Assembly: GCF_030013595.1 (NCBI RefSeq)
Contig: NZ_CP122768.1
DNA from: Escherichia coli
GTDB lineage: Bacteria > Pseudomonadota > Gammaproteobacteria > Enterobacterales > Enterobacteriaceae
Length of the DNA stretch: 64,000 nucleotides
Reading direction: 5' to 3' (one strand)
Of the stretch, positions 1,812 through 51,694 are shown one piece after another. Made by a program: the position numbers and the translations under genes. A model generated the notes under the pieces. That model was given only the letters and a program-made list of their open reading frames with translations. It searched no databases and had not been told where the DNA came from. The stretch's first letter is position 1, and each line of letters opens with the position of its first letter.

Positions 1812-1948
1812 TCTGATTACGAAAAAGATATGTTGCGGGAGGCGTTGCCTCCCCAACATATAAGTGGCTCCCTCAAGCCACTTCCTTTAGGAGCACAACC
1901 TTGCTTCTAACTATATAAACCTTCTGTTATATATTACCCTTTATTTTT

Positions 1949-1973
1949 GGGGGCGTTGCAACGCCCCATTTTT
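1949..1973 (+). terminator. Rho-independent terminator downstream of nmpC
   Basis: Perfect hairpin ggggcgttgcaacgcccc followed by atttttaat. Confidence 0.55.
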
Positions 1974-2000
1974 AATAACTTTCAGTAAACAATTGGCATA

Positions 2001-2399: not shown

Positions 2400-2401
2400 A
2401 A

Positions 2402-3397: not shown

Positions 3398-3398
3398 C

Positions 3399-4617: not shown

Positions 4618-4940
4618 ACTTTCAGGCCCCTCTCATGTAACCAGTGGGCTGCACGCAGCCTGGCGTTTTCCTCACCGGCAAGCAGTGCGCGGATAATCCC
4701 GACCGCCTCGCTGTCGTCGTCCTTCACCGCGGTATGAAGAGTTATCCCCCGGGCCACGCCACGCTTTATCGTGATGACGCCTTTTTTCTCCAGTGCGCGA
4801 AGATGCTCCACCGCTGCATTCACCGAACGGTATCCCAGCATGGTTGCCACCTCCTGATTGGTTGGCGGAAAGCCACGTTCTTGCTGGTAAGAAATCAGCA
4901 TATCCAGCACCTGCTGCTGGCATTGAGTTAACGTCGTCAT
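4614..4940 (-). CDS. LexA-type N-terminal DNA-binding domain protein, no peptidase domain
   Basis: 108 aa; LTQCQQQVLDMLISYQQERGFPPTNQEVATMLGYRSVNAAVEHLRALEKKGVI resembles the LexA winged-helix domain; 4-nt overlap with flanking genes. Confidence 0.5.
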   Translation of the reverse strand: MTTLTQCQQQVLDMLISYQQERGFPPTNQEVATMLGYRSVNAAVEHLRALEKKGVITIKRGVARGITLHTAVKDDDSEAVGIIRALLAGEENARLRAAHWLHERGLKV

Positions 4941-5590
4941 GCCGCCATCTCCCTGACCAGTTTTTCCGCCTGCTGGCGAACCTGCGCCAGAAAGGCCTCA
5001 CCACATGCCTCAAGTTCATCGCGCCCGATGTAGCTGATTGCCGGTCCCTTCCAGGTCTTGTCGAAAACAGCAATAGCACCAGCGAAGAAAGCGCCTGTCG
5101 GCACCTGCTTCTCGTCCTTCGGGATAAACCAGGCTGGCAGTTCAAAACCAATACGCCCGCGAATAAAAGCAATATGGTCTGCATCTTCCGGCCACCACAC
5201 TTCGCTGGTGGCAGCTTTGATCAGGAAAACATAGCGCCCGCCTTTATCACGCATGGCACTGGCATGCTTCATGATGTAACGCATGCCGGTGATGTATTGC
5301 CCCTCATGCTGACTGGCGCGGCTGTACGGGGGATTACCAAAGGCAGCACCTTTAAGCTCCGCAAGACGTTCTGACCAGTCATGCGCCAGCGCGTTGTCTT
5401 CCGCAGTGTAATACGCGGCGCATTTGGCGTTATCACCATCAGTAAACAGATCCAGAACAAACGGGCCAAACAGGGTGTTAATTCCCCAGAAAATGTTGTC
5501 CGGCGTGCGCCACTGATCGCCCACTTCCTTCAGTTCATGGGCTGGTTTGTTCCGCAGCTCCACCAGCGCCTGGCAATATTTATTACTCAT
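4937..5590 (-). CDS. Phage DNA N6-adenine methyltransferase (Dam-like)
   Basis: NPPY motif (GNPPYSR); start placed at Met giving TAATG coupling with the upstream gene; ORF track extends to 5623. Confidence 0.7.
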   Translation of the reverse strand: MSNKYCQALVELRNKPAHELKEVGDQWRTPDNIFWGINTLFGPFVLDLFTDGDNAKCAAYYTAEDNALAHDWSERLAELKGAAFGNPPYSRASQHEGQYITGMRYIMKHASAMRDKGGRYVFLIKAATSEVWWPEDADHIAFIRGRIGFELPAWFIPKDEKQVPTGAFFAGAIAVFDKTWKGPAISYIGRDELEACGEAFLAQVRQQAEKLVREMAA

Positions 5591-6084
5591 TAAGCCCCCA
5601 CGTAATTCCCTGACAGATACCACTCTTCACCCGATGCAGCGCGCTTGCTGCTTTTCCGTAAACACCGCTCACGACGCGCAAGAAAATTGTTTCGCTCTTG
5701 CTGGGAGTGGCTTTCACGGAATGCCGCCATCCACACCGTTGCAGCACGACGGTATAAGCCCCTGGACTCCAGTTCTTCCGCCTGGCGGGTCAGGCACAAA
5801 ATAACCCGGGGATCGTTAGTGCCGACATAGAAATTGCGCACAGGTCTGGATTCACGAACTGGTTGCGGTTCCGGCTCCTGCGGTATCTCAGTCAGCCGCG
5901 GGAAATGTCTGCGTGTATCCCCTTCACAACGGTGAGCCACACGCCCACTCTGACGTAACTTGCTTGCTGACTGCAGAACGCGCTGTCGTGAGTAACCTGC
6001 AAAAGCATCCGCAATGTCTCCGGAAGTACACCCCGGATGGGCTTCAATGAATTTCTGAACGTCATTCAAAAGACTCATGATCAC
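5590..6084 (-). CDS. Hypothetical phage protein in replication module
   Basis: 164 aa, translationally coupled to the replication gene upstream and the methyltransferase downstream. Confidence 0.45.
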   Translation of the reverse strand: MIMSLLNDVQKFIEAHPGCTSGDIADAFAGYSRQRVLQSASKLRQSGRVAHRCEGDTRRHFPRLTEIPQEPEPQPVRESRPVRNFYVGTNDPRVILCLTRQAEELESRGLYRRAATVWMAAFRESHSQQERNNFLARRERCLRKSSKRAASGEEWYLSGNYVGA

Positions 6085-7022
6085 CCCCTGAATCCTGCCG
6101 GGATCTGGCTGTAGTCCACGTTGTCGTAACTGGCTTTGAAGTACGGGTCTTCGCGTTTTTCGGTGTACGTGCTGACGGACGGCGATAAGCGCAGGGAAAG
6201 CTCATCCCATTTTTCCCGCAGCTTCGACGGGCTGAGCACGTTACGGCACCAGAACGGATCGCGACTGACGCGGCTGTACATCTCGCAGATTTGTTTATGA
6301 GTACGACCATCCTGCACACACATCAGGCGAATTTCGTTTGCCCAGGCTGTCCAGTTCGGTTCTTTGGGACGAACCACCTCGCCGTCACATTCGGCGGCAT
6401 GCTCGTACAGGGCGATGATTTTTTTCCAGAGCCACTGTGCGCAGGTCAAATCATCCTGCGTCCCCCACTGGCGCTTTTTAGGGCTGAATACAACCGCATC
6501 AGGATGGCGAGTTAAAAAATCCTGTTCAGCCGTCTGCGTGTCCGGTTGCGAAGAGTCCGGACGAGAAGGTTTTTTATCTGACGGATCATGTTTTGATTTT
6601 ACTGACGGATCCCCGCCAGATTCTGACGGGTGAAAACCCGCTTTTTTGCCAGATTTCGACGCATCAAATTTTGACGGGTCAGATTTTGATGCGTCAGATT
6701 TTGACGGGTCAGAATCTGACAGTTGAGAAAATGCCGCTGCCTGAAGCTTCGCAACGTTAAGCTGATAAACATTCGACGCATTGCGGTTACCCTGGCGACG
6801 CGCCTTACGCGTTAACCAGCCTTCTGCTTCCAGCCGTGCGATAGCCGTTCTGACGGTACTCATCCCCGCGCCAATCTGGCGGGCAATGGTTTCAATCGAT
6901 GGCCAGCACACACCTTCGTCATTACTGAAATCAGCCAGGCGGGCCATAATTGCCACGCTGGATAATTTCATGCCTGACGCTGCGCAACCATCCCATACAT
7001 AGCCGGTTAATTTAGTGCTCAT
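6081..7022 (-). CDS. Putative phage replication initiation protein (N-terminal wHTH, O-like role)
   Basis: 313 aa; HTH segment CWPSIETIARQIGAGMSTVRTAIARLEAEGWL; repetitive SDPSKSDASK linker encoded by internal iterons. Confidence 0.55.
   Translation of the reverse strand: MSTKLTGYVWDGCAASGMKLSSVAIMARLADFSNDEGVCWPSIETIARQIGAGMSTVRTAIARLEAEGWLTRKARRQGNRNASNVYQLNVAKLQAAAFSQLSDSDPSKSDASKSDPSKFDASKSGKKAGFHPSESGGDPSVKSKHDPSDKKPSRPDSSQPDTQTAEQDFLTRHPDAVVFSPKKRQWGTQDDLTCAQWLWKKIIALYEHAAECDGEVVRPKEPNWTAWANEIRLMCVQDGRTHKQICEMYSRVSRDPFWCRNVLSPSKLREKWDELSLRLSPSVSTYTEKREDPYFKASYDNVDYSQIPAGFRG
6575..6730. repeat. Iteron array (putative prophage ori) inside the replication gene
   Basis: About 8 tandem copies of a TGACGG(A/G)TC-like unit (tctgacggatc, actgacggatc, tctgacgggtg, ttgacgggtc x2, ttgatgcgtc) followed by an A/T-rich stretch. 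Confidence 0.55.
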
Positions 7023-7031
7023 GACCGACCT

Positions 7032-7370
7032 CTATTTCCCTGAATTTACGACGAAACTGTTCGAGCGGACTGAAGCACTCATGCTCATAGCCTTCGCGGA
7101 GGTAGATAACCCGTTGTGTTTCCGGTTCCCAACGAATGACTCTGACGGGCACTCCGTAGTGATCTTTGAACCAGCGGTTAACTTGTCGCAAAGGACTGTC
7201 TCCTTCTGCCGGTTGAAATCCCCCACAGCCCACTCTGCAAAGCTGTGGGTTACAATTTCCCTGTCACCTGGTACATTCACTGCATAGCAATATTCCACCT
7301 TCGCTTTTCCACCCGGTACAGGAAGCGCAATCAGTTGCGAGCGACGGTAGTGTGTTGTTAAACTGTTCAT
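7032..7370 (-). CDS. YmfM-like e14-type phage protein
   Basis: 112 aa; 4-nt overlap with the upstream CII-like gene; C-terminal half overlaps an alternative-frame ORF (7012..7233). Confidence 0.45.
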
Positions 7371-7936
7371 GCGTTAGTTTCTCCACAACCAGAAGCAATC
7401 GACGCCACGACGCCCGGAGCTGCACACTCGCGGGCGTCATTACTTTCTGAAATGCAAAAGATTTTGTAGACCAGTGCTGCATGCTCCTGCAGCTTCGAAA
7501 TTGAGAGATACAGCTCGTCGTTAATTGCTGTCTTCTCATGCGGTTCCACTACACCGTCTTCGATTGCTGAACGAATCTGTTTTGAATAACTGCCGATCTG
7601 TTCAATGACTTCCAGCAGACGCTGGTTAATATCGGCGTTGTCCACATCCTCGACGTCAGGAAGCGACACAAAGACGCCATTTGCAGACTGCGCCACAGCA
7701 TCAGCAATGAAGTGAGTGCCACCAGCACGCTGTAAAACCATTGCCCATCCCAGCGGGAAAATCTGATCGCCATCTGCACGAAGGCGGTTGAATAAAGCGT
7801 TTTCTGTTACATCGAGCCAGTCAGCCGCTTCAGCGTAACCACCCGGCAACGCCGCGATAGTTTTTCTGACAGCTTTCACGTACCACTCAGGCTGTTTTTC
7901 TATTTTCCAGTGATGCTTACCCACGATTAGCCTCAT
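7367..7936 (-). CDS. YmfL-like / CII-type phage regulatory protein
   Basis: 189 aa, directly downstream of cro in the rightward operon. Confidence 0.55.
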
Positions 7937-7967
7937 CGTTCTGTGGTTAAAAATTGAAAGTGTTCTG

Positions 7968-8168
7968 CTAATCTTTCGGATAGATATCCGGTCTTAAGTC
8001 AGATTTCGTAATTGCACCTGACGTGCATTGCTCAAGTTTTTTAGCCAGCACAAAACTGGCTTTTTTATAGCCATTGAAAACCAGCCGTAAGTAGCCAGGA
8101 GTTGAGCCAACTTTTCCGGCCAACTCGCCCTGCTGTTCTTTGGTTAAAGAGTCCCAATACGCTTTCAT
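7968..8168 (-). CDS. Cro-like repressor
   Basis: 66 aa MKAYWDSLTKEQQGELAGKVGSTPGYLRLVFNGYKKASF... with HTH; GGAG SD; divergent from cI; ORF track's 167 aa is an upstream extension. Confidence 0.65.
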   Translation of the reverse strand: MKAYWDSLTKEQQGELAGKVGSTPGYLRLVFNGYKKASFVLAKKLEQCTSGAITKSDLRPDIYPKD

Positions 8169-8222
8169 ACAATATGTACCTCCGGTGTACATATTACATG
8201 ATTGAAATGAACCTTCAAGACA

Positions 8223-8243
8223 CTTGTACCTTAACGGTACAAG
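8223..8243. promoter_or_regulatory. Putative OR operator palindrome between cro and cI
   Basis: cttgtacc-ttaa-cggtacaag inverted repeat; further TGTAC half-sites at 8175 and 8186. Confidence 0.45.
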
Positions 8244-8258
8244 GGTTTTAATTTCGTT

Positions 8259-8933
8259 ATGAAAACAATCCATGACATCCGGCGGTCTAACGCCCGAAAA
8301 CTGAGAGATGGTGTTGGAGGGAATTCTTCCTTTGCCACTATGATTGATCGCGAGCCAACCCAGACCAGCAGGTTTATGGGAGATGGTGCTACTAAAAATA
8401 TCGGTGACAGCATGGCACGACACATCGAAAAATGTTTCGACCTGCCTGTCGGATGGCTCGATCAAGAACACCAGACAACGAACATCACAAAAAAACCTGA
8501 TGTTTCAATCACTAATAAACAAATCACATTAGTCCCTGTCATATCATGGGTACAGGCCGGAGCATGGAAAGAAGTTGGATATTCTGAGGTTGATTTGAGC
8601 ACAGCAGAAACGTATCCCTGCCCTGTACCCTGTGGGGAAATGACTTATATCTTGCGGGTGATAGGTGATTCAATGATTGATGAGTACCGCCCGGGAGACA
8701 TGATTTTTGTCGATCCTGAAGTACCTGCCTGCCACGGTGACGACGTTATTGCATTGATGCACGATACAGGTGAAACCACCTTCAAAAGGTTGATAGAAGA
8801 TGGGACACAGCGTTATCTCAAAGCGTTAAACCCAAACTGGCCTGAGCCTTACATTAAGATCAACGGTAATTGCTCTATAATTGGAACTGTGATTTTCTCA
8901 GGAAAACCAAGAAGATACAAAATCAAAGCCTAA
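8259..8933 (+). CDS. CI-like prophage repressor (HTH plus S24 LexA-like peptidase), CohE-like
   Basis: 224 aa; C-terminal S24 region ...VIGDSMIDEYRPGDMIFVDPEV...; divergent from cro. Confidence 0.8.
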   Translation: MKTIHDIRRSNARKLRDGVGGNSSFATMIDREPTQTSRFMGDGATKNIGDSMARHIEKCFDLPVGWLDQEHQTTNITKKPDVSITNKQITLVPVISWVQAGAWKEVGYSEVDLSTAETYPCPVPCGEMTYILRVIGDSMIDEYRPGDMIFVDPEVPACHGDDVIALMHDTGETTFKRLIEDGTQRYLKALNPNWPEPYIKINGNCSIIGTVIFSGKPRRYKIKA

Positions 8934-8946
8934 TCAATGTTTATGA

Positions 8947-8968
8947 ACCTGCTTCGGCAGGTTTTTTT
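8947..8968 (+). terminator. Rho-independent terminator after the cI-like gene
   Basis: acctgc-ttcg-gcaggt hairpin followed by tttttt. Confidence 0.6.
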
Positions 8969-8972
8969 ATAC

Positions 8973-9000
8973 TTGACAATGTACCCACGAGATACATAAT
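8973..9000 (+). promoter_or_regulatory. Putative pL-like sigma70 promoter with operator repeats
   Basis: TTGACA (8973-8978), 16-bp spacer, CATAAT (8995-9000); direct repeats atgtacccacgaga / atgtacccaagaga share the TGTACC operator half-site. Confidence 0.45.
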
Positions 9001-9081
9001 GTACCCAAGAGAAACAACAAACAGGCAGGACGCCCACGAAGTAGCCGCCTGGGGCATATGAAGTCCAGGATGATTCGTTAG

Positions 9082-9110
9082 CAACAAAAAAGCGCCCTAC
9101 AGGACGCTTA
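9082..9110 (-). terminator. Rho-independent terminator for the minus-strand moron
   Basis: On the minus strand: agcgtcc-tgta-gggcgct hairpin followed by tttttgttg, 38 nt past the stop at 9148. Confidence 0.45.
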
Positions 9111-9147
9111 GCTCTTTAACAATCTGGATATCCACAACAGTAGTAAT

Positions 9148-9639
9148 CTACAGATTGCCGTTAAGTTTTCTGGACAACTCCTCAATGGATGGAGGCGATA
9201 CGTAATCCGGATTTTTATTCATCAGAAACTTATTTTCACAGTGGAGGCACCTGCTTTTATGAAAAAGCTCATCTTCGCTAACCGGGAATGGTTGAAGTAT
9301 CGATACTATCTTTTGTCCAAAACATTTTGGGCAAAGATGCATGGTTATGCTGCCACCGTTCACGATTACCTCCTTCGAGTATACAAAAGTACCCGACTCA
9401 AGTTGGTTAAGGATATAGCCTTCCGTCTGAGCCTCAAAGTTTTCGAATTCTGCAATTTTAGCTTTGAGAGAAGCATTTATTTCTTGATAAGAGCCCACCA
9501 GTTCAACGAGAGACACGCATTCGCGCTGAATAGACGCAAGCTTTGAGTTCAGCTCACCAATAGCCGCATTTACTTCAGCTTGAGTTTTTGCCTCGTTCAT
9601 TAGTTTTGCAATCTGGGCTGTTTCACGAATAGCCGTCAT
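9148..9639 (-). CDS. Hypothetical coiled-coil / C4 zinc-ribbon protein (moron between cI and early-left operon)
   Basis: 163 aa from Met at 9639; N-terminal coiled-coil-like region, C-terminal CPKC...(26)...CLHC; opposite to pL transcription; AT-rich; ORF track extends implausibly to 9927. Confidence 0.5.
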   Translation of the reverse strand: MTAIRETAQIAKLMNEAKTQAEVNAAIGELNSKLASIQRECVSLVELVGSYQEINASLKAKIAEFENFEAQTEGYILNQLESGTFVYSKEVIVNGGSITMHLCPKCFGQKIVSILQPFPVSEDELFHKSRCLHCENKFLMNKNPDYVSPPSIEELSRKLNGNL

Positions 9640-9949
9640 TGCTGCCGTTAATTCAGCGATCACATTGAATACTCTTATTGTTGTTGGGGATATCCAGATT
9701 AACCGAATCCTTGTTGTTGGGGAATAACCAGGTCCACCTCGCCTGATGTGGCTAAAAGCAGGCACATAACAGCTAAGTATTTTCAACCAGAGAGAATCCT
9801 TAGCGTTGTGGTGAATGCGGCTCAGCGCACGCGGGTTAAGGTTGAGGCTGACAGTCGACCTTCTGTGGATACCCACCCGCCTGGTGTGCAACCTTCGCCA
9901 GGCACCGGGAGGCACCCGGCACCACAACTTTATGCTGTGTGTAGTCCTG

Positions 9950-9996
9950 GCGGTACCAGTTTGTACCCTTGCTTCCGGCTGGTACCGTCCTTTTTT
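9950..9996 (+). terminator. Rho-independent terminator in GC-rich non-coding region
   Basis: cggtaccag ... ctggtaccg 9-bp stem followed by tcctttttt. Confidence 0.5.
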
Positions 9997-9997
9997 G

Positions 9998-10084
9998 CAA
10001 AACAGAGAAGAGCATCACCGGACGACGGGCTCATAACCCAATCCATCCGGGCGGCTGCCACCGCAGGTGTTCTTCTCTGTTTTG
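9998..10084. repeat. Long imperfect inverted repeat / RNA stem
   Basis: caaaacagagaagagca and tgttcttctctgttttg (17 bp, one mismatch) flanking ~53 bp of GC-rich sequence. Confidence 0.4.
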
Positions 10085-10133
10085 TGGAGAAACCAACCGA
10101 CCTTGCAGGGTCGATATGATGAGGAGCAGCAAA

Positions 10134-10496
10134 ATGGCTAGCGAACGCAGTACTGATGTGCAGGCATTTATCGGGGAGCTGGACGGCGGCGTATTTGAAA
10201 CCAAAATCGGCGCAGTTCTCAGTGAGGTCGCTTCCGGTGTGATGAACACGAAAACCAAAGGGAAGGTCTCACTCAATCTGGAAATCGAACCGTTTGATGA
10301 GAACCGTGTGAAAATCAAACACAAACTCTCATATGTTCGCCCAACTAACCGCGGGAAAATTTCCGAAGAAGACACCACCGAAACGCCGATGTATGTCAAT
10401 CGCGGTGGTCGCCTGACTATTCTGCAGGAAGACCAGGGACAATTACTGACTCTTGCCGGTGAACCTGACGGAAAACTCCGCGCAGCAGGTCGTTAA
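10134..10496 (+). CDS. YfdP-like prophage protein
   Basis: 120 aa; GAGGAG SD 7 nt upstream of ATG; first gene of the early-left operon, gene order as in CPS-53 yfdPQRST. Confidence 0.6.
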   Translation: MASERSTDVQAFIGELDGGVFETKIGAVLSEVASGVMNTKTKGKVSLNLEIEPFDENRVKIKHKLSYVRPTNRGKISEEDTTETPMYVNRGGRLTILQEDQGQLLTLAGEPDGKLRAAGR

Positions 10497-10561
10497 TATC
10501 GTTCGTAATAAACTGATTATTTATCTCATCACTGAATATCTTTATATAGTGAGGACTTATT

Positions 10562-11386
10562 ATGTCTCAGAACTTAGACGCAACCGCAATTAATCAAATC
10601 CATGCCCTTATTTCTGCTCAGAGTGTTAATGAAATTATCAGTAAGATTGGTGCCGATGCTGTGGCATTGCCTGAGAATTTCCGCATTCATGATCTGGAAA
10701 AATTTAATTTAAATCGCTTCCGTTTCCGTGGTGCACTTTCCACTGCCAGCATCGATGATTTTACCCGTTATTCTAAAGATCTTGCAGATGAAGGCACCCG
10801 CTGCTTTATCGATGCCGATAATATGCGTGCCGTCAGTGTGCTTAACCTGGGTACTATTGATGAGCCAGGTCACGCAGATAACACTGCCACTCTCAAACTG
10901 AAAAAGACAGCACCGTTCTCTGCTCTGTTGTCTGTTAACGGCGAGCGTAACTCCCAGAAGTCACTGGCAGAATGGATCGAAGACTGGGCCGACTACCTTG
11001 TGGGCTTTGATGCTAATGGTGACGCCATTCAAGCAACAAAAGCGGCTGCGGCAGTCCGTAAAATCACGATTGAAGCAAACCATACCGCTGATTTTGAAGA
11101 TAATGACTTCAGCGGCAAACGCTCCCTGATGGAGTCTGTCGAAGCGAAGACCAAAGACATTATGCCAGTGGCATTTGAATTTAAATGCGTTCCGTTTGAA
11201 GGTCTGAAAGAACGTCCGTTTAAATTACGCCTCAGCATTATCACTGGCGATCGTCCTGTACTGGTTCTGCGCATTATTCAGCTGGAAGCGGTGCAGGAAG
11301 AAATGGCTAACGAATTTCGTGATCTGCTTGTTGAGAAATTCAAAGACAGCAAAGTAGAAACCTTTATTGGTACTTTCACCGCCTGA
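10562..11386 (+). CDS. yfdQ: YfdQ family protein (DUF2303)
   Basis: 274 aa, same length and position as CPS-53 YfdQ; TGAGGA SD. Confidence 0.7.
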
Positions 11387-11397
11387 TTTCATTACTG

Positions 11398-11420
11398 CAA
11401 ATGCCCCTGCGGGGGCATTT
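11398..11420 (+). terminator. Stable stem-loop between yfdQ and yfdR (possible attenuator)
   Basis: aatgcccc-tgcg-ggggcatt perfect 8-bp stem; weak T tract. Confidence 0.35.
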
Positions 11421-11513
11421 ATGGAAACGTAATTAACTCAATAATCACCGGATGGTGAGGGCTTCCTTTTACCAGAATTCAGCGCGGTGCAGTGCATATA
11501 CGTGGAGAACAAA

Positions 11514-12050
11514 ATGTCATTTATTAAAACTTTTTCCGGGAAGCATTTTTATTATGACAAGATAAATAAAGACGACATCGATATTAACGATATCGCGGTT
11601 TCCCTTTCAAATATCTGTCGCTTTGCCGGTCATCTTTCGCACTTCTACAGCGTCGCCCAACATGCGGTTCTTTGCAGCCAGCTGGTGCCGCAGGAATTTG
11701 CTTTTGAAGCGTTAATGCATGATGCAACAGAAGCGTATTGCCAGGACATTCCCGCACCACTGAAACGCCTTCTTCCTGACTATAAACGGATGGAAGAAAA
11801 AATAGACGCCGTAATCCGTGAGAAATACGGGTTACCCCCAGTTATGAGTACACCCGTGAAATATGCCGATCTCATCATGCTGGCAACCGAACGCCGCGAT
11901 CTCGGGCTTGATGATGGCTCTTTCTGGCCTGTACTGGAAGGCATCCCGGCAACAGAGATGTTCAACGTGATTCCACTGGCACCGGGTCATGCCTACGGGA
12001 TGTTTATGGAACGTTTTAACGATTTATCGGAGTTACGCAAATGCGCATGA
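11514..12050 (+). CDS. yfdR: HD-domain 5'-deoxynucleotidase YfdR-like
   Basis: 178 aa from MSFIKTF; HD-family residues (...QHAVLCSQ..., ...HDATEAY...); ORF track start at 11487 is an upstream extension. Confidence 0.7.
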   Translation: MSFIKTFSGKHFYYDKINKDDIDINDIAVSLSNICRFAGHLSHFYSVAQHAVLCSQLVPQEFAFEALMHDATEAYCQDIPAPLKRLLPDYKRMEEKIDAVIREKYGLPPVMSTPVKYADLIMLATERRDLGLDDGSFWPVLEGIPATEMFNVIPLAPGHAYGMFMERFNDLSELRKCA

Positions 12051-12403
12051 ATGTTTTCGAAATGGAAGGGTTTCTTCGCGGGAAATGTGTACCGCGAGAT
12101 CTGAAAGTGAACGAAACAAATGCTGAGTACCTGTTACGTAAATTCGACGCGCTTGAAGCTAAATGTGCGGCACTGGAAAACAAAATAATACCAGTGTCAG
12201 CTGAACTGCCACCAGCAAATGAAAGTGTTCTGTTATTTGATGCTAACGGAGAAGGCTGGCTGATTGGCTGGCGTTCTCTCTGGTACACCTGGGGACAAAA
12301 AGAAACCGGAGAATGGCAGTGGACATTTCAGGTCGGGGACCTTGAAAACGTCAATATCACTCACTGGGCAGTAATGCCAAAAGCACCGGAGGCTGGAGCA
12401 TAA
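12041..12403 (+). CDS. yfdS: YfdS-like prophage protein (DUF551)
   Basis: 120 aa, follows yfdR as in CPS-53. Confidence 0.65.
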   Translation: MRMNVFEMEGFLRGKCVPRDLKVNETNAEYLLRKFDALEAKCAALENKIIPVSAELPPANESVLLFDANGEGWLIGWRSLWYTWGQKETGEWQWTFQVGDLENVNITHWAVMPKAPEAGA

Positions 12404-12708
12404 TGACCACATTTACCAATAAAGAACTGATTAAAGAAATCAAAGAACGAATCAGCAGCCTAGAGGTTCGAGACGATATTGAGCGCCGTGCTTATGAAAT
12501 CGCACTCGTATCTCTGGAAGTAGAGCCAGATGAACGCGAAGCCTATGAATTATTCATGGAAAAGCGTTTCGGTGACTTAGTAGATCGTCGGAGAGTAAAA
12601 AACGGCGATAACGAATACATGGCATGGGATATGACTCTCGGTTGGATCGTCTGGCAGCAACGAGCTGGTATCCATTTTTCAACAATGACACAGCAAGAGG
12701 TGAAATAA
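12403..12708 (+). CDS. yfdT: YfdT-like prophage protein
   Basis: 101 aa, coupled to yfdS (ATGA-type overlap). Confidence 0.65.
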   Translation: MTTFTNKELIKEIKERISSLEVRDDIERRAYEIALVSLEVEPDEREAYELFMEKRFGDLVDRRRVKNGDNEYMAWDMTLGWIVWQQRAGIHFSTMTQQEVK

Positions 12709-13079
12709 TGGAGCCATACAGCCTCACACTCGATGAGGCCTGTCAGTTTCTTAAGATATCCAGACCAACCGCCACCAACTGGATACGAACAGGCCGCCTA
12801 CAGGCAACACGTAAAGATCCAACCAAGCCAAAATCTCCTTACCTCACAACACGGCAAGCTTGCATTGCGGCGCTTCAGTCTCCGCTGCATACTGTCCAGG
12901 TGAGCGCGGGTGATGGCATAACAGAGGAAAGAAAATGTCACTCTTCCGCAGAAATGAAATATGGTATGCCTCGTATTCGCTCCCGGGCGGGAAACGAATT
13001 AAGGAATCTCTTGGCACAAAGGACAAGCGGCAAGCTCAGGAGTTGCACGACAAGCGAAAAGCAGAACTCTGGCGAGTAG
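12708..13079 (+). CDS. Putative excisionase (AlpA/Xis-like HTH); 3' end uncertain, frame overlaps int
   Basis: Starts TAATG-coupled to yfdT; N-terminal HTH-like segment [28 protein letters not shown]; frame stays open to 13079. Confidence 0.45.
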
Positions 13080-14098
13080 AAAAGCTAGGGGATTTACCTG
13101 ATGTCACTTTTGAAGAGGCCTGCCTAAGATGGCTTGAGGAAAAAGCTGATAAAAAATCTCTCGATTCAGATAAAAGCCGGATTGAGTTCTGGCTTGAACA
13201 TTTTGAGGGTATAAGGCTTAAAGATATCTCGGAGGCAAAGATTTACTCTGCTGTAAGCAGAATGCATAACAGAAAGACGAAAGAAATATGGAAACAGAAA
13301 GTTCAGGCCGCCATCAGGAAAGGTAAAGAACCGCCTGTTTATGAACCAAAGCCAGTATCAACTCAGACAAAGGCAAAGCATCTTGCCATGATAAAGGCCA
13401 TTCTCCGTGCTGCAGAACGCGACTGGAAGTGGCTGGAAAAAGCGCCTGTCATCAAGATACCAGCGGTCAGAAACAAGCGAGTCAGATGGCTGGAAAAGGA
13501 GGAAGCAAAACGCCTTATTGATGAGTGCCCCGAACCACTGAAATCTGTCGTCAAGTTTGCGCTGGCAACTGGTCTGAGAAAGTCGAACATCATAAATCTG
13601 GAATGGCAACAAATCGACATGCAGCGACGAGTTGCCTGGGTGAATCCAGAAGAGAGCAAATCAAACCGCGCCATTGGTGTGGCGCTGAACGATACCGCCT
13701 GTAAAGTGTTGCGTGATCAAATAGGCAAGCATCACAAATGGGTGTTTGTACATACCAAGGCGGCTAAGCGAGCAGATGGAACATCAACGCCTGCGGTCAG
13801 GAAGATGCGCATCGACAGCAAGACATCATGGCTATCAGCTTGTCGTCGTGCAGGAATTGAAGATTTCCGTTTCCATGACCTCAGACACACCTGGGCAAGC
13901 TGGCTGATCCAGTCAGGCGTCCCATTATCTGTGCTTCAGGAAATGGGCGGATGGGAGTCCATAGAAATGGTTCGTAGGTATGCTCACCTTGCGCCTAATC
14001 ATTTGACAGAGCATGCAAGGAAAATAGACGACATTTTTGGTGATAATGTCCCAAATATGTCCCACTGTGGAATTATGGAGGATATAAAGAAGGCGTAA
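12935..14098 (+). CDS. intD: Tyrosine integrase (IntD-like), adjacent to argU
   Basis: 387 aa; C-terminal catalytic region ...[17 protein letters not shown]...VRRYAHL; ends 16 bp from the tRNA 3' end. Confidence 0.85.
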
Positions 14099-14113
14099 CT
14101 GATTGAATTGTAA

Positions 14114-14190
14114 TGGCGCGCCCTGCAGGATTCGAACCTGCGGCCCACGACTTAGAAGGTCGTTGCTCTATCCAACTGAGCTAAGGGCGC
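14114..14190 (-). tRNA. argU: tRNA-Arg (anticodon UCU), argU
   Basis: Reverse complement GCGCCCTTAGCTCAGTTGGATAGAGCAACGACCTTCTAAGTCGTGGGCCGCAGGTTCGAATCCTGCAGGGCGCGCCA, 77 nt, cloverleaf-compatible. Confidence 0.95.
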
Positions 14191-14432
14191 GTTGATACCG
14201 CAATGCGGTGTAATCGCGTGAATTATACGGTCAACCCTTGCTGAGTCAATGGCTTTTGATCTGGTTGCTGAACAAGTGAACGACCGCGTCTGATTTTCTG
14301 ATTTATTTCGCTATAGCGGCAAACAAACGTACATCGCTGCGCGTCTGAATCAAGAAAACTCGTATTTTCATGTATCAAAGTACAATTTCCCGCCCTAACG
14401 GAAAATTGTCCGATCCAATGAGACTGGTAACT

Positions 14433-15065
14433 ATGAAACCAACGTCGGTGATCATTATGGATACTCATCCTATCATCAGAATGTCTATTGAAGTTCTGTT
14501 GCAAAAAAACAATGAATTGCAAATTGTCCTGAAAACGGATGATTATCGCATAACCATCGATTATCTCCGAACCCGTCCTGTTGATTTAATCATTATGGAT
14601 ATAGACTTGCCCGGAACAGACGGTTTTACCTTCCTGAAAAGGATCAAACAAATCCAGAGCACAGTGAAAGTATTATTTTTATCATCGAAATCAGAATGCT
14701 TTTATGCTGGCAGAGCGATACAAGCTGGTGCTAACGGTTTTGTCAGTAAATGCAATGATCAGAATGATATTTTTCACGCCGTTCAGATGATCCTCTCCGG
14801 ATACACTTTTTTTCCCAGCGAAACGCTCAACTATATAAAAAGCAATAAATGCAGTACGAATAGTTCAACGGTCACGGTGCTATCTAATCGTGAAGTGACC
14901 ATATTACGTTATCTGGTTAGCGGATTATCCAATAAAGAAATTGCCGATAAGTTATTACTTAGCAATAAAACAGTTAGTGCGCATAAATCTAATATTTATG
15001 GCAAGCTAGGTTTGCATTCAATTGTAGAGCTTATCGACTACGCCAAATTATATGAATTAATATAA
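14433..15065 (+). CDS. fimZ: Fimbrial response regulator FimZ (LuxR-type)
   Basis: 210 aa from MKPTSVIIMDTHPI; receiver domain plus C-terminal LuxR HTH. Confidence 0.9.
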   Translation: MKPTSVIIMDTHPIIRMSIEVLLQKNNELQIVLKTDDYRITIDYLRTRPVDLIIMDIDLPGTDGFTFLKRIKQIQSTVKVLFLSSKSECFYAGRAIQAGANGFVSKCNDQNDIFHAVQMILSGYTFFPSETLNYIKSNKCSTNSSTVTVLSNREVTILRYLVSGLSNKEIADKLLLSNKTVSAHKSNIYGKLGLHSIVELIDYAKLYELI

Positions 15066-15067
15066 TA

Positions 15068-15583
15068 TTAATTGTAATTGATCATAAATATCGCATCCGC
15101 TTTCGCCACACCTGGCTGAACACCGCTGGCTAACGCTCGATAATTGGCAAAAAAGTTTAGTGTGACATTGCCATTTGCATCTACTTCCTCAGTCGGACTC
15201 GCCTCCCCCAGTGCGAGCCGGGAGCGATCGCTATTACGTAATTCGATGGCGACGGTTTGTGCCATTGCGGGATCATCCAGAGCCAGCAGGTTGGCATCAG
15301 ATGCCGGCGTTCCCGTAAATAAAATCGCAACTGAACCCGGAGGACATCCCTCCAGCCGCAGGCTAAAAGGGACGAGTGCCGTGGTATCGCCAGCGCTCAG
15401 TAATTGTGTCGTAGGCCATCTGCCTAAATCTACCGTCTTATCCTTATCCGCTGTGTTTACGGTACAGGAGAAATCAACAACGTTACCGTGCAAATTGATA
15501 TTAATCGTTCCTAAAGGGTCAACTGCCCATCCACTGGAACTCCACAGTAGCCCGCAGAAACAGCTAAAGAGTACTCTTCTCAT
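15068..15583 (-). CDS. sfmF: Fimbrial minor subunit SfmF
   Basis: 171 aa from MRRVLFSCF; fimbrial subunit fold; ORF track upstream extension ignored. Confidence 0.85.
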   Translation of the reverse strand: MRRVLFSCFCGLLWSSSGWAVDPLGTININLHGNVVDFSCTVNTADKDKTVDLGRWPTTQLLSAGDTTALVPFSLRLEGCPPGSVAILFTGTPASDANLLALDDPAMAQTVAIELRNSDRSRLALGEASPTEEVDANGNVTLNFFANYRALASGVQPGVAKADAIFMINYN

Positions 15584-43067: not shown

Positions 43068-44849
43068 TTATTCATAGTGCATGAAGCAGGTTTCAGTCGG
43101 TGCGTCCACTGCGTTATCGGCGATATCTTCAAATTCCATGACGTTATCCAGTTCGCTGCCCATCGAAATATTGGTCACACGCTCGAGAATAACTTCCACG
43201 ACTACCGGTACCCGATATTGCGCCATTAAGGCTTTCGCCTGTTCAAAGGCTGGTGCAATATCTTCCGGTTTGAAAACGCGAATCGCTTTACAACCTAAAC
43301 CTTCCGCTACTTTTACGTGGTCGACGCCGTAACCGTTCACTTCACTGGAGTTAATATTTTCGAACGCGAGCTGTACGCAGTAATCCATATCAAACGCGCG
43401 CTGCGACTGGCGAATCAGCCCCAGATAGGCGTTATTGACCAGTACATGGATGTACGGAATGTTGAACTGTGCGCCAACGGCTAATTCTTCAATCAGGAAC
43501 TGGAAGTCGAAGTCACCGGAAATCGCCACCACATTGCGCTCTGGATCAGCGGCACACACGCCCAGCGCCGCCGGAATGGTCCAGCCCAACGGGCCTGCCT
43601 GCCCACAGTTGATCCAGTGGCGGTCTTTAAAGACATGCAGCATTTGTGCCGCAGCGATTTGTGACAGACCAATGGTGGTGACATAACAAACATCGCGACC
43701 AAAGGCTTTGTTCATCTCTTCATACACGCGCTGCGGTTTCACCGGCACATTGTCGAAGTGGGTTTTGCGCAGCAAAGTGCGTTTGCGCTGCTGGCAGTCG
43801 GCGACCCATTCTTTACGACACGGCAGACGACCCGCTTTTTGCATCTCCTGCGCCACTTCAACCAGCAGTGTCAGCGCCGCTTTAGCATCAGAGACAATGC
43901 CGAGATCCGGACACAGCACGCGGCCAATTTGCGTCGGCTCAATATCGATATGAACGATTTTGCGCCCTTCGGTGTATTTCTCTACCGAACCGGTATGACG
44001 GTTCGCAAAACGGTTACCGATACCAAACACCATGTCGGACGCCAGTAGCGTTGCGTTACCGTAACGATGCGCGGTTTGCAGACCCACCATCCCGGCCATC
44101 AGTTCGTGGTCATCCGGGATACAGCCCCAGCCCATCAGCGTTGGGATCACCGGAACGCTGGTCAGTTCAGCAAACTGTTGTAGCAGTGCAGCTGCGTCAG
44201 CATTGATTACCCCGCCCCCGGCAACAATCACCGGACGTTCGGCCTGAATTAACATTTCTACCGCTTTTTCGATCTGCATACGGCTGGCAGCAGGTTTGTA
44301 GACCGGCAGCGGTTCGTACATGTCAGGATCAAACTCGATTTCCGCAACCTGAACGTCGAACGGTAAATCCACCAGTACCGGACCCGGACGACCAGAACGC
44401 ATCAGGTGAAACGCCTGTTGCAGCACGCGAGGCACCAGCGCCGCTTCACGAACTGTAACCGCCATTTTGCTGACCGGTTTAGCAATTGCTTCAATATCTA
44501 CGGCCTGAAAATCTTCTTTATGCAGACGGGCGCGCGGTGCCTGGCCGGTAATGCACAGAATAGGAATGGAATCAGCAGAAGCGGAATAGAGCGCGGTGAT
44601 CATGTCCGTGCCCGCAGGACCGGAAGTCCCCAGACATACGCCGATATTCCCTGCCGTTGCGCGGGTATAACCTTCCGCCATGTGCGAAGCACCTTCCACA
44701 TGACGCGCCAGAATGTGACGAATACCGCCGTGCTTACGCATCGCTGAGTAGAACGGATTGATTGCAGCTCCCGGAACGCCGAAGGCGGTGGTGATACCTT
44801 CTTTCTCCAGCACATACATTGCCGCGTCAACGGCTCTCATTTTTGCCAT
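43068..44849 (-). CDS. gcl: Glyoxylate carboligase Gcl
   Basis: 593 aa from [18 protein letters not shown]; ThDP enzyme; AGGAAT SD; ORF track upstream extension ignored. Confidence 0.95.
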
Positions 44850-44869
44850 TTTATTCCTACCTCTATTAA

Positions 44870-44886
44870 TTGGAAAAATTTTCCAA
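44870..44886. promoter_or_regulatory. Putative AllR operator in gcl promoter
   Basis: Perfect palindrome TTGGAAAAATTTTCCAA about 20 bp upstream of the gcl start. Confidence 0.5.
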
Positions 44887-44901
44887 CTTTCAAATTTTGT
44901 C

Positions 44902-44926
44902 AAAAAAACCCGCTCCGCAGAGCGGG
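44902..44926 (-). terminator. Rho-independent terminator after allR
   Basis: cccgct...agcggg hairpin with U-run on the minus strand. Confidence 0.5.
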
Positions 44927-44938
44927 ATGCGACAGACA

Positions 44939-45754
44939 CTATGGATGTGCTTTCAGTCCCAACGCCGTGCTGATATCGCGGGCGGTGTCTCTGACCAGCT
45001 CACCCTGACTGACAAAACGATCTTCTGTCAGTCTTGATGAAGGCCCGGAGATGGAGATAGCGGCAACAACGCTACCTACATCATCGTAAATTGCTGAAGC
45101 TATGCAATTCAGACCGACAACATGCTCTTCTTTATCTACGGTATAGCCCAGTTCACGCGCTTGTTCCAGGTCCTTCAGCAAGGTGGGCATATCCACAAGC
45201 GTCGTTGGCGTAAACTGCTGCAAACCGGTTTGCAGAATGATGCTCATCAACTCCTCTTCCGCCAGCGGATAAAGCAGCGCCTTGCCCGCACCGGAAGCAT
45301 GCAGCGGCAGACGACTGCCCAGCGGCGCACACATCCTGACCATCGATTTACACTCCAACTGACCAATTAATACTGCTTCATTGCCGTTACGAATCGCGAC
45401 ATTGACCGTTTCGCCGGAAAGTAACATCAGGCGGCGCATAAACGGCCCGGCGACGGAGAGGACATCGCGGTTATGGATGTACGCCGCACCGACGTTAAAA
45501 ACACCTAATCCTATATGCCACCAGCCTAACTGACTGTCCTGGTAGACAAAATCCGCTGCCTGTAAAACCTTCAGCAAGCGAAAGGTCGTGGAGAGCGGCA
45601 AATCCAGATTGAGAGAAATATCGCTAACCGACGAACTCCCCCCACTTTTTTCCAGATATTGCAGAATCGCAATTCCCCGCTCTAACGCCTGTGCGCCCTT
45701 CTGTGCCACAGGCTCCGCCTGTCCTGGCCTGCCGCGCCGTCTAACTTCCGTCAT
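44939..45754 (-). CDS. allR: IclR-family repressor AllR
   Basis: 271 aa. Confidence 0.9.
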
Positions 45755-45831
45755 ACCTACGTTAACTCCGACCTACAAGTGAGCATAAACAATGAACAAT
45801 TAGTTTATCTTATGCAAGTCGGTTGCAGGCG

Positions 45832-46314
45832 TCACGCAAAACAGAGTTCCTGTTCAGGAATACTTTCAACATCACAGTTGTCACTGCCGCCGCGATCGAT
45901 GGTCAGAAAATCGGTGACGCGCTGCCAGGCGAAAAGTGGGTGATGCCAGACGTTACGATGGTAATTCACTCCCTGTTCGCCGTTGGTAATAAACGCCCGC
46001 AGAGTTGACAGGTCTGGTTTGTCGTCACCTAACGCCACGACCACCACAAACACTTCACCTTTCATCGGGATAAAGGCCTGAGTACCCAGCGGATGACGTT
46101 CGAGTTCGTGAATGGTCAGCGGCAGATTCGCCGGTTGCGCGCGGTTAATGCTGATAAGCGTACGGTCTTGCTCAAGAATCTCAACCAGCGCCAAATCGTG
46201 GTAACGCTCCACCAGGCCATTGTTAATATGGAAAAAATCCCGTTGCTGCGTTTCGATTACATCGCCATAAGCACTAAAGGCTTCCTGACTTAACGGTAAT
46301 ACCTGAAGTTTCAT
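45832..46314 (-). CDS. allA: Ureidoglycolate lyase AllA
   Basis: 160 aa, [21 protein letters not shown]... Confidence 0.9.
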
Positions 46315-46419
46315 CTTTTTGTCCTTGTAACATAATTCCGTTCAACCACCGCCGACCGGTCAGCTTGGTTTCAATAACAGGCAATCTAAAACCTTAAGAG
46401 AACAACATCAACACAAAAG

Positions 46420-46436
46420 TTGGAATATTTTTCCAA
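46420..46436. promoter_or_regulatory. Putative AllR operator in allA-allS intergenic region
   Basis: Palindrome TTGGAATATTTTTCCAA. Confidence 0.5.
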
Positions 46437-46543
46437 AACTAGATTTAGTCCACAAATTGAACAGGGTTATCATGTAAAAATACTGATAAATCAGAGGATA
46501 AGAAAATCACGCAACTTGCGGATTTAAAAGGGGATACCTGAAG

Positions 46544-47470
46544 ATGTTCGATCCAGAAACCTTGCGGACTTTCATTGCGGTTGCTGAAACAGGAAGTTTT
46601 TCAAAAGCGGCAGAACGATTATGTAAAACCACGGCGACGATCAGTTATCGCATTAAACTTCTGGAAGAGAATACCGGAGTAGCGCTGTTTTTCCGCACGA
46701 CTCGCAGCGTGACATTGACAGCGGCTGGCGAGCATCTACTTTCTCAGGCCAGAGACTGGCTGAGCTGGCTGGAAAGTATGCCAAGCGAGCTGCAACAGGT
46801 GAATGATGGCGTGGAACGCCAGGTGAATATTGTCATCAACAACCTGCTCTATAATCCCCAGGCCGTCGCCCAGTTGCTGGCGTGGCTGAATGAGCGTTAC
46901 CCCTTTACCCAGTTTCACATCTCCCGACAAATCTATATGGGCGTCTGGGACTCGCTATTGTACGAAGGTTTTTCGCTGGCTATCGGCGTCACGGGAACTG
47001 AGGCGCTGGCAAATACCTTTAGTCTTGATCCCTTAGGATCGGTGCAATGGCGCTTTGTCATGGCGGCGGATCATCCGCTGGCGAACGTTGAAGAGCCGCT
47101 AACAGAAGCTCAGTTGCGTCGCTTTCCGGCGGTCAATATTGAAGACAGCGCCCGCACCTTAACCAAACGCGTCGCCTGGCGATTGCCAGGGCAAAAAGAG
47201 ATTATTGTTCCTGATATGGAAACGAAAATCGCCGCCCATCTGGCGGGCGTTGGCATTGGTTTTTTGCCAAAATCACTTTGCCAGTCAATGATCGATAATC
47301 AACAACTGGTCAGCCGGGTAATCCCAACGATGCGCCCGCCTTCGCCATTGAGTCTGGCATGGCGCAAATTTGGCAGCGGCAAAGCGGTAGAAGATATTGT
47401 GACCTTGTTTACCCAGCGCAGGCCGGAAATCAGCGGATTTTTAGAAATTTTCGGCAACCCACGCAGTTAA
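46544..47470 (+). CDS. allS: LysR-family activator AllS
   Basis: 308 aa with N-terminal HTH. Confidence 0.9.
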
Positions 47471-48633: not shown

Positions 48634-48695
48634 TGGGCGGTATTCTGAAACGGCGATTGTCGTGAGAACAAAATGGTTGCACCAGAATACAGATA

Positions 48696-48733
48696 TAAAA
48701 AAACCGACATGACAGTCGGTTTTTTTATTTTTT
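48696..48733 (+). terminator. Rho-independent terminator after mnmH
   Basis: aaaaaaaccgacatgacagtcggtttttttatttttt; a degenerate second copy lies at 49174-49203. Confidence 0.6.
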
Positions 48734-49044
48734 CCGCCCAAGACTTGGTGGTTCCGGGCAGAAATGAAACAGTCCTCATCTAGCAAGTGAATTATAAGTC
48801 AGGATGCCTACATATTCAAACAGCTATGTTGGCGATACAATCCCGACGCTAGTAGTGATACTGCCTCAAGGGATTACCGCAGTGCGGAAAAGTACTTTTA
48901 AGTCCTGGTCAGGATACAGGTGGTGCTGATTCTGGTGCTCTAATTTGGAGAGAGGCAGTCCTCATCTAGCACATGAAGAAAATCATAGTTACAGGCAACG
49001 TAAGGGTAAGCTGTGATTGTCTTTCTCCCTTAAGGGAGCAACGG

Positions 49045-49128
49045 ATGAAAACTTTTCTCGATAAAGTTCTCATCGTTCTTAAGGCGCTAATCGCGCTGCT
49101 GGAACTGATCCGTCAGTTTATTGAATAA
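49045..49128 (+). CDS. Candidate small protein, 27 aa amphipathic peptide (MKTFLDKVLIVLKALIALLELIRQFIE)
   Basis: AAGGGAG SD 6 nt upstream; SD lies in the palindrome ctccc-ttaa-gggag; strong hairpin aaggccgaagg...ccttcggcctt downstream; not in the ORF track because it is under 60 aa. Confidence 0.35.
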   Translation: MKTFLDKVLIVLKALIALLELIRQFIE

Positions 49129-49231
49129 CTGAGGAAACGTAGCTAAGGCCGAAGGTTTACCACCTTCGGCCTTTAAAAAAACCGACATGACAGTTGGTTT
49201 CATATTTATTGCCAAAATGCACACTGTTCAT

Positions 49232-49330
49232 GCCAGATGCGGCGTAAACGCCTTATCCGGCCTACACAATCTTGCAAAATCAATATATTGCACGCTCTTC
49301 GTAGGCCTGATAAGCGTAGCGCATCAGGCA
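49232..49330. repeat. REP/BIME palindromic elements
   Basis: gccagatgcggcgtaaacgccttatccggcc and aggcctgataagcgtagcgcatcaggc. Confidence 0.55.
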
Positions 49331-49345
49331 ATCTAACACCTGTCA

Positions 49346-51694
49346 TCACCCCGCAAACTGCCTGAACAGCGCCTTACCCTTAACCAGTCGCGCGCCCAGC
49401 CAGCCGCCGCAAAGCGACAGCAGCAGCGCACCGCTGCACGGCAGAACAATCCACAATCGCCAGTCTGGCTCCCACGGAAAATCAAACACTTTCGCCTGCA
49501 ACACTGCCAGCGCCGTTTCCGCACCAATTGCGGCCACCAGGCCAGAAACAAACCCGAGCATGGCGAACTCACACCACAACGTGGTACGCAGCAGTTTTTT
49601 CCCCGCACCGAGTGTGCGCCACACCACCAGCTCCTGATGACGCTGACGCATTCCCACCTGCACCTGTGCCAGCAACAGCAACATACCGCAGGCGGTGACC
49701 AGCACCACCATCACCTCCAGCGCCCGACTTACCTGCTCCAGCACCTGACCGACCTGTTTTAAAATCGCGCCAATGTCTAACAGGCTAATGGTAGGGAACT
49801 GGCGGTTGAGTTGCGTCAACATGCCGTTGCCATTCTCCCAGCGGAAACTGGTAAGCCAGCTCTGCGGTTGCCCGTCTAATGCCCCTTCCGGGAAAATAAA
49901 ATAGAAATTAGGCCGCAGACTTTCCCAGTCCACTTTGCGCAGGCTGGTCACTTTAGCGCGGAACTCCTGGGTATCGCCCATAAAGGTGACTGTATCGCCG
50001 AGGCCAACGTTTAAGCGTTTCGCCAGCCCCTCTTCCATCGACACTTCATCGGCTTTTGGCGGCCAGTTACCGGCGACAATCGGATTATGATCGGGCCGCG
50101 TATTTTGCCAGGTAAGATTAAGTTCGCGATTGAGCGCCTCATCTTCATTGCCTTCTGTCGGCTTGCCGTTAATCGCCGTCAGTCTCGCCCGCACCACCGG
50201 ATAAAATGATTCCGGGACTATCTGATGTTCCGCGAGGAACGCTTTTAGCGGTGCTACCTGTTCTGTGGCGATGTTGATTAAAAAGTAGTTCGGGCTTTCT
50301 GGCGGTAGCTGCTGTTGCCAGCGGTCGAGCAGATCGCCACGCAATACCAGCAACAGCGCCAGCAGCATAAAGGAGAGCGAAAATGCCGAAAGCTGGCTTA
50401 ACGTTGACCACGGCTGACGTAACAGGCGGCTAACCGCCAGGCGCAGAGGCAGCGATTTCAGCGTCATGCGGCGAAGTACATTCAGCAGCATGCTGCCACC
50501 CATTAATCCGGCGAGCAGCACCACAACCACCACACTGACAATCGGCAGATAAAACTTCAGCGGCCAGACGTTCGCTACCACATCATTACGTAATACGCGT
50601 AAAGGCTGCGTTGCCAGCAACAAGCGGTATGGTCGTAGCCCCACCAGCAGCGAGATAACCGTCATGGTGCCCAGCGCCCATAGCCACGGCCAGAGGCTGG
50701 CTGGCGGTAGTGCAGCAGGCAGAACGGGCTTGAGCAGCACCATCAACACGTTTTCGAACAACAGGCCTATCGCCCCGCCGGTAACGGCTGAAAGCGCCAG
50801 CACCATCAACCACTGACCGACGATTAGCTTACGCAGTTGCGCTCGCCCTGCCCCCAGCGTTTTGAGGATCGCCACCAGATCGTAGCGACTGCGACAGTAA
50901 TGATTCATCGCCACCGCCACCGCTGCCACTGCCAGCAGCAAGGTCAGAAGCGCCGAAAGCAGCAGGAACTGTTGCGAGCGTTCCATCGAGCGCCCCAGCG
51001 CGCCTTCGTCCTGTTCCAGACCGTACCAGCGTTGTTCGGGTTTAAGCTGGGGTAACAACCATTTCTCATAGCCGTCGAGCTGGTTCTCGTTGCCGCCGAA
51101 TTTATAGCGCCAGGTGACCCGACTTCCCGGCTGCACGGCTCCGGTTTTATCGACATCCGCCAGATTCATCATCAGACGCGGAGCCATCTGGAAGGGGTTA
51201 AAACCGGAATCCGGTTCCTGAATCACTTCTCCGGCAATCCGCAAGGTGGCATCACCCACGTCGATGGTGTCGCCTGTTTTCAGGTTAAGCAGTGCCATCA
51301 GGCGTGGGGCCAGCAATACGCTGCCCGCCTGCGGTTTCAGGCCAGGGGGATTAGTTTGCAGATCGCCATACATCGGGTAGATATCATCCACCGCTTTGAC
51401 GTTCGCCAGCTGCGGTGTGTCGCCTGCAAATGTCATGGTGGCGAAAGTCAGCTGCTTGCCGACTTTCAGGCCGCGCTTTTGCGCTTCCTCCAGCCACGCT
51501 TGCGGCACTTCGCGCGAACTGCGCAACGCCCGATCGCCCGCCATAAACTCCCGGCTTTGCTGGCTTAAGCCCTTCTCCATGCGATCGCTGATATTGCCCA
51601 GCGCCAGCACGCAGGCCACCGCCAGGCTTAGCGCCAGCCAGACAATTAATAGCGACGGCGAGCGCCATTCGCGCCAGAACCAACGTGCAATCAT
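49346..51694 (-). CDS. ybbP: ABC transporter permease YbbP (FtsX-like)
   Basis: 782 aa multi-pass membrane protein; 4-nt overlap with ybbA. Confidence 0.9.
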   Translation of the reverse strand: MIARWFWREWRSPSLLIVWLALSLAVACVLALGNISDRMEKGLSQQSREFMAGDRALRSSREVPQAWLEEAQKRGLKVGKQLTFATMTFAGDTPQLANVKAVDDIYPMYGDLQTNPPGLKPQAGSVLLAPRLMALLNLKTGDTIDVGDATLRIAGEVIQEPDSGFNPFQMAPRLMMNLADVDKTGAVQPGSRVTWRYKFGGNENQLDGYEKWLLPQLKPEQRWYGLEQDEGALGRSMERSQQFLLLSALLTLLLAVAAVAVAMNHYCRSRYDLVAILKTLGAGRAQLRKLIVGQWLMVLALSAVTGGAIGLLFENVLMVLLKPVLPAALPPASLWPWLWALGTMTVISLLVGLRPYRLLLATQPLRVLRNDVVANVWPLKFYLPIVSVVVVVLLAGLMGGSMLLNVLRRMTLKSLPLRLAVSRLLRQPWSTLSQLSAFSLSFMLLALLLVLRGDLLDRWQQQLPPESPNYFLINIATEQVAPLKAFLAEHQIVPESFYPVVRARLTAINGKPTEGNEDEALNRELNLTWQNTRPDHNPIVAGNWPPKADEVSMEEGLAKRLNVGLGDTVTFMGDTQEFRAKVTSLRKVDWESLRPNFYFIFPEGALDGQPQSWLTSFRWENGNGMLTQLNRQFPTISLLDIGAILKQVGQVLEQVSRALEVMVVLVTACGMLLLLAQVQVGMRQRHQELVVWRTLGAGKKLLRTTLWCEFAMLGFVSGLVAAIGAETALAVLQAKVFDFPWEPDWRLWIVLPCSGALLLSLCGGWLGARLVKGKALFRQFAG

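Follow-up and report, generated by a model that had tools for sequence, protein, structure and literature searches.

We detected two palindromes, one at the promoter of gcl and one between the divergent genes allS and allA of Escherichia coli, which are very probably the operators of AllR, the repressor encoded between them. Both sites have already been published, comparative genomics included, and they are intact in the strain studied here, in a DNA stretch of 64 kb (hereafter the window). The AllR/AllS circuit for the use of allantoin and glyoxylate is thus intact and K-12-like in this strain, a finding that matters little beyond annotation. The analysis also documents the dense packing of the allR terminator, the gcl promoter and its operator.

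The allantoin locus of the window

The window contains the E. coli allantoin locus in the orientation opposite to that in K-12 (Table 1). The proteins encoded by gcl, allR, allA and allS all scored above their NCBIfam equivalog cut-offs (4/4), and the same four gene names are given, with identical coordinates, in an annotated genome that is 99.96% identical over positions 14332-50491. The gene gcl leads the operon gcl-hyi-glxR-allW-allB-ybbY-glxK, and the spacer between allS and allA measures 229 bp. AllR is identical to its K-12 counterpart in 271/271 residues, AllS is likewise 100% identical to that of K-12. Of 5426 complete E. coli genomes, 5404 contain the 2-kb stretch of this locus.

Table 1. 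Genes, predicted operators and other predicted or candidate elements of the allantoin locus, in window coordinates (arrows give the direction of reading on the minus strand).
Feature	Position	Strand or reading	Basis
gcl (glyoxylate carboligase)	43068-44849	-	TIGR01504, 1282 bits
AllR operator at gcl promoter (predicted)	44870-44886	plus-strand reading TTGGAAAAATTTTCCAA	exact match
Candidate gcl -10, AATTTT	44875-44880	-	putative; 17 nt after TTGACA, in operator centre
Candidate gcl -35, TTGACA	44898-44903	-	putative; inside the equivalent of the 82-bp fragment of PMC13300388
allR intrinsic terminator (predicted)	44902-44926	-	CCCGCUC-UGCG-GAGCGGG 44926->44909, U7 44908->44902
Equivalent of sRNA AllZ (K-12 b4831): 3' part of allR plus terminator	44902-45136	-	K-12 annotation, coordinates transferred via alignment
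allR (IclR-family repressor, 271 aa)	44939-45754	-	NCBIfam NF007548 equivalog, 619 bits vs cut-off 406
allA (ureidoglycolate lyase)	45832-46314	-	NCBIfam equivalog
Candidate allA promoter, TTGATG, 17 nt, TAGATT	46411->46406, 46388->46383	-	inferred from sequence and conservation (22-sequence alignment)
AllR operator common to divergent allS/allA (predicted)	46420-46436	plus-strand reading TTGGAATATTTTTCCAA	exact match
Candidate allS extended -10, TGtAAAAAT	46473-46481	+	putative, low confidence; in conserved block TGATTTATAAGTATTTTTGCAT (allA sense)
allS (LysR-type activator of allD and allF)	46544-47470	+	NCBIfam equivalog

Sequence and position of the two palindromes

The preliminary description of this DNA had noted near-perfect palindromes at gcl and at allA/allS, and both could be located. 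The site at gcl is a perfect palindrome (8+1+8) that reads TTGGAAAATTTTTCCAA in the sense of gcl and has its centre at -29 nt from the gcl ATG. The site between allS and allA reads TTGGAAAAATATTCCAA in the sense of allA and contains a single non-complementary pair (positions 7 and 11); the distance from its centre to the start codon is 114 nt for allA and 116 nt for allS. Both sites fit 12/12 arm positions of the published AllR motif KTTGGAAWAWTWTTCCAAC, plus the W/A/T pattern at its centre. When the 64-kb window was searched for TTGGAA-N5-TTCCAA at 0, 1 or 2 mismatches, only these two palindromes were recovered, and the number of exact sites was 2 where 0.0036 were expected from base composition. 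The full 17-mer searched with 3 mismatches led to the same two loci only, a count reached by 0 of 100 shuffles.

The allS-allA operator has one asymmetric position, which is an A (position 11) when read in the sense of allA. Of the 22 aligned sequences (the window and 21 related loci), 18 keep this orientation. The asymmetry of the operator itself thus looks conserved, and an overlapping promoter element may be its cause. Only two other perfect 8+1+8 palindromes occur in the window, ACTGACTCCGAGTCAGT at 197-213 and ATTAATATAATATTAAT at 15056-15072, the latter at the convergent ends of fimZ and sfmF.

Comparison with published AllR sites and with K-12

The AllR motif is credited to Rintoul et al. 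2002 in a survey of the IclR family (PMC8222616 Table 1). The supplement of that survey lists K-12 AllR sites at allS (-124, gTTGGAAtATTTTTCCAAA), allA (-124, TTTGGAAAAATaTTCCAAc) and gcl (-39, gTTGGAAAAATTTTCCAAt), and gives equivalent sites for Salmonella, Shigella and Klebsiella, the centres of the orthologous sites in Shigella and Salmonella falling at -30 and at -113 to -115. The placement that the preliminary description had called the expected one for AllR operators therefore matches both the published motif and the K-12 sites. The published K-12 offsets (-39/-124/-124) are the starts of 19-mers and those of the window (-29/-114/-116) are site centres, and the two sets agree within a one-base counting convention. 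For K-12, AllR binding was reportedly described, with footprints, by Rintoul (2002) and Hasegawa (2008), as related in papers citing them.

Other studies assign the same sites to AllR. A 37-mer centred on the allS-allA palindrome was used as 'the AllR recognition site' (PMC13300388); it maps to window positions 46410-46446 with one SNP in a flank. In the same study an 82-bp K-12 fragment, reaching from the terminator to the Shine-Dalgarno sequence, drove a lux reporter as the gcl promoter under repression by AllR, and its equivalent in the window is 44938-44857. AllR has also been described to bind the allS-allA control region and the promoter of the gcl operon (PMC12535856). That study names glyoxylate the inducer and allantoin the corepressor, and it found allD-allF to have no AllR site. 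Relief of AllR binding by glyoxylate is stated in two papers (PMC12535856, PMC10163214).

The K-12 AllR operators concern the same genes, offsets and repressor as those of the window. The allS-allA operator of K-12 is identical to that of the window, whereas at gcl the K-12 operator TTGGAAAAATTTTCCAA and the window operator TTGGAAAATTTTTCCAA, both in the sense of gcl, have identical arms and differ in the central base (A in K-12, T in the window), so that the plus-strand reading of the window site coincides with the K-12 sequence in the sense of gcl. This change leaves the dyad perfect. The gcl region of K-12 differs by one more SNP, 2 nt downstream of the operator (CCAATTAAT in the window and CCAATAAAT in K-12). 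Among 5426 complete E. coli genomes, the 96-base allR-gcl spacer allele of the window occurs in 1396 and that of K-12 in 1974, and Shigella flexneri has the same gcl operator core with a central T (PMC8222616 supplement). The sole difference from K-12 within the operators is hence a common, symmetry-neutral polymorphism. With AllR, AllS and the allS-allA operator equal to those of K-12, the earlier statement that the wiring of the regulon is conserved in this strain stands.

Conservation of the operators across genera

Species-representative genomes were scanned with AllR, which yielded 22 orthologous loci from nine genera (Escherichia, Superficieibacter, Klebsiella, Raoultella, Citrobacter, Buttiauxella, Izhakiella, Atlantibacter and Providencia), in which AllR identity falls to as low as 66%. 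Exactly one TTGGAA-N5-TTCCAA (0-1 mismatch) was found in the allR-gcl region of 21/21 related loci that include it, and the same holds for the allS-allA spacer, again in 21/21 loci. In alignments anchored on the sites, for which the two window sites were joined by 42 from the related loci (n=44), the 12 arm positions reached 1.98 and 1.93 bits (maximum 2), compared with 0.66-1.08 bits for the 35-nt flanks. This cross-genus comparison provides independent support, at the level of sequence, for the published operators.

A scan with an AllR weight matrix, which the preliminary description had proposed, was carried out with a matrix built from 40 orthologous sites of non-Escherichia loci only. The gcl site scored 31.8 bits and the allS-allA site 31.4 bits out of a maximum of 32.9, while the next-best position of the window reached 7.1 bits and the best among 30 shuffles 14.8 bits. 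The scan thus indicates that the window has exactly two AllR-type sites. It returned no AllR-type site in the allA-allR spacer or in the fdrA-allD spacer, a result in agreement with PMC12535856.

Other operators of the IclR family, such as those of KdgR and of the tetramer-bound TtgV, are likewise A+T-rich palindromes near a start codon, and relative to the gene start most site centres in the family lie between -20 and -80 nt, most commonly at -22 (PMC8222616). The window operators differ in that a search of their surroundings recovered no second site in tandem at 18-22 bp. Two candidate auxiliary tetramer sites with 3 mismatches, at 44843-44859 and 46325-46341, fall within the regulatory regions but were rejected as noise, with matrix scores of 2.2 and -6.9 bits.

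One of the related records, CACSKA010000001.1, labelled 'Chryseobacterium sp. 18061', has an enterobacterial allS-allA-allR-gcl locus with proteins 72-93% identical to their E. coli counterparts, and its allS-allA operator equals that of a contig of Citrobacter sp. 18056. The record is probably mislabelled or contaminated.

Alternative explanations for the palindromes

The paralogue IclR recognizes a box, TGGAAATNATTTCCA, at the aceBAK and iclR promoters that has the same TGGAAA...TTTCCA dyad around a single central base. IclR belongs to the same regulator family, and its glyoxylate effector chemistry is as for AllR, while its target genes differ. Only two centre-flanking positions tell the IclR motif from the AllR dyad (PMC8222616 Table 1), and AllR itself obtained 248 bits against the IclR family model, a score under the cut-off of that model. 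Even so, it is very improbable that the two sites are operators of IclR or are common to both repressors. The two discriminating positions, which flank the centre, read T..A in IclR boxes but A..T in the window sites. Of the 44 aligned sites, 41 have AllR-type bases there (A-8, T-10), the two of the window among them. All of the sites lie next to allR and to genes of allantoin or glyoxylate metabolism, published work attributes them to AllR (PMC8222616, PMC12535856), and the 64-kb window contains no iclR.

Two further readings dispense with AllR, and we give both of them next to no weight. The palindromes might function not as DNA operators but as hairpins in the leader RNAs of gcl or allS/allA, as each of them, if transcribed, can fold a hairpin of 6-9 bp. 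These folds are weak, however (-4.4 to -7.1 kcal/mol, z -0.9 to -1.6), an Rfam search returned no match to a relevant family, and the gcl palindrome probably lies mostly upstream of the transcription start. The arms are moreover invariant, without covariation, over the 44 sites, which is the mark of sequence-specific protein contact and not of structure. Alternatively, A+T-rich palindromes could have arisen by chance, or plain promoter elements without a regulator could be mistaken for operators, considering that the intergenic DNA is A+T-rich and that a -10 element may extend into the centre of the palindrome. Against this, the exact sites far exceed the number expected, both lie where predicted, and they are conserved in nine genera amid diverged flanks.

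The allR terminator and AllZ

In the preliminary description the gcl operator adjoined the terminator hairpin of allR, and we recovered there a hairpin followed by seven U residues, with a gap of 15 bases between the U-run and the operator. The stem, which starts 13 nt past the allR stop codon, consists of 7 bp (6 of them G-C) closed by a 4-nt loop, and the predicted fold has -18.8 kcal/mol (z = -3.4). In folds of single sequences, hairpin and U-run are kept in 21/21 related loci that include the region, and three genera, Buttiauxella, Atlantibacter and Providencia, have stems of a different sequence. Hairpins this divergent fail to align column by column, and RNAalifold therefore yielded no consensus structure for the aligned terminators.

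According to the K-12 annotation, the 3' end of the sRNA AllZ is the last U of the allR terminator run. AllZ has been detected by RIL-seq and northern blot, with grcA as partner, and may have a promoter of its own (PMC8175672).

Promoter geometry and proposed mechanism

The first two T's of the candidate gcl -35 element are the last two of the U/T-run of the terminator. Most related loci have a TTGnnn hexamer 10-11 nt before the palindrome, and a few have TTAGAC, TTCACA or TGGGCT there. The candidate -10 element is a weak match to the consensus and is missing from the hits of a consensus promoter scan. The only match of that scan near gcl, TTTCCA-17-TAAAAT, was rejected as the AllR-controlled promoter because its -10, which overlaps the ATG, lies outside the 82-bp fragment of PMC13300388. 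The proposed hexamers, in contrast, are in keeping with the promoter activity of that fragment. Nine genera share the order of terminator hairpin, U-run leading into the -35 and, after another 10-11 nt, operator, all packed into about 60 bp.

According to the cited literature, the N-terminal helix-turn-helix domains of AllR contact each TTGGAAAA-N-TTTTCCAA dyad when inducer is absent, and bound AllR keeps gcl-hyi-glxR-allW-allB-ybbY-glxK, allA and allS off. Glyoxylate frees AllR and allantoin tightens repression, and de-repressed allS supplies the activator for allD and allF. At gcl, the sequence suggests that the operator covers the likely -10 element and the transcription start of a very compact promoter. 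Since the -35 element of this promoter would also start in the terminator U-run, repression of gcl most likely occurs by occlusion of RNA polymerase.

The close spacing at gcl leads to a further reading, namely that terminator, -35 element and operator form one integrated module in which AllR, bound 15 nt past the terminator, would act as a roadblock to allR read-through and influence the formation of the AllZ 3' end. We regard this as unlikely; the compact layout may just reflect the short spacer. If the module reading were true, the output of allR and AllZ would be coupled to the repression of gcl.

Between allS and allA, a single operator halfway along the spacer would serve both promoters, and it is probably located upstream of both core promoters, in a geometry that is uncertain. 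The candidate allA promoter, which stayed below the threshold of the promoter scan, would put the centre of the operator near -52. That this operator would lie about 50-60 nt ahead of the allA and allS transcription starts alike is the least certain element of this scheme, and an operator near -52 to -60 would be unusual for plain steric repression of allA and allS. The block TGATTTATAAGTATTTTTGCAT (allA sense, 46450-46500), between the operator and allS, shows cross-genus conservation that nearly equals that of the operator flanks; it could be the promoter of allS or a binding site for a different regulator.

Other features of the window

Outside the allantoin locus, the window includes a segment (1229-14233) with a prophage and integrase, an adjoining tRNA-Arg gene and a truncated porin gene. 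The complete genome most similar to the window, NZ_CM149870.1, has this segment in the opposite orientation, with a copy of the IS4-like ISVsa5 at the junction, and the order in the window (prophage, integrase, tRNA-Arg, fimZ) is K-12-like.

Downstream of allS, the gene ybbP (49346-51694, minus strand) has 782 codons compared with 804 in NZ_CM149870.1. The difference is an in-frame gap of 66 bp with a junction near 50484-50491, where about 8 bases match on both sides. The interval from mnmH (selU) to ybbP, 48634-49345, is only about 700 bp long, and we take the corresponding interval of K-12 to hold the RhsD element. In the near-identical genome, a small gene for a DinQ-type type I toxin is annotated within the mnmH-ybbP interval, at 49045-49128.
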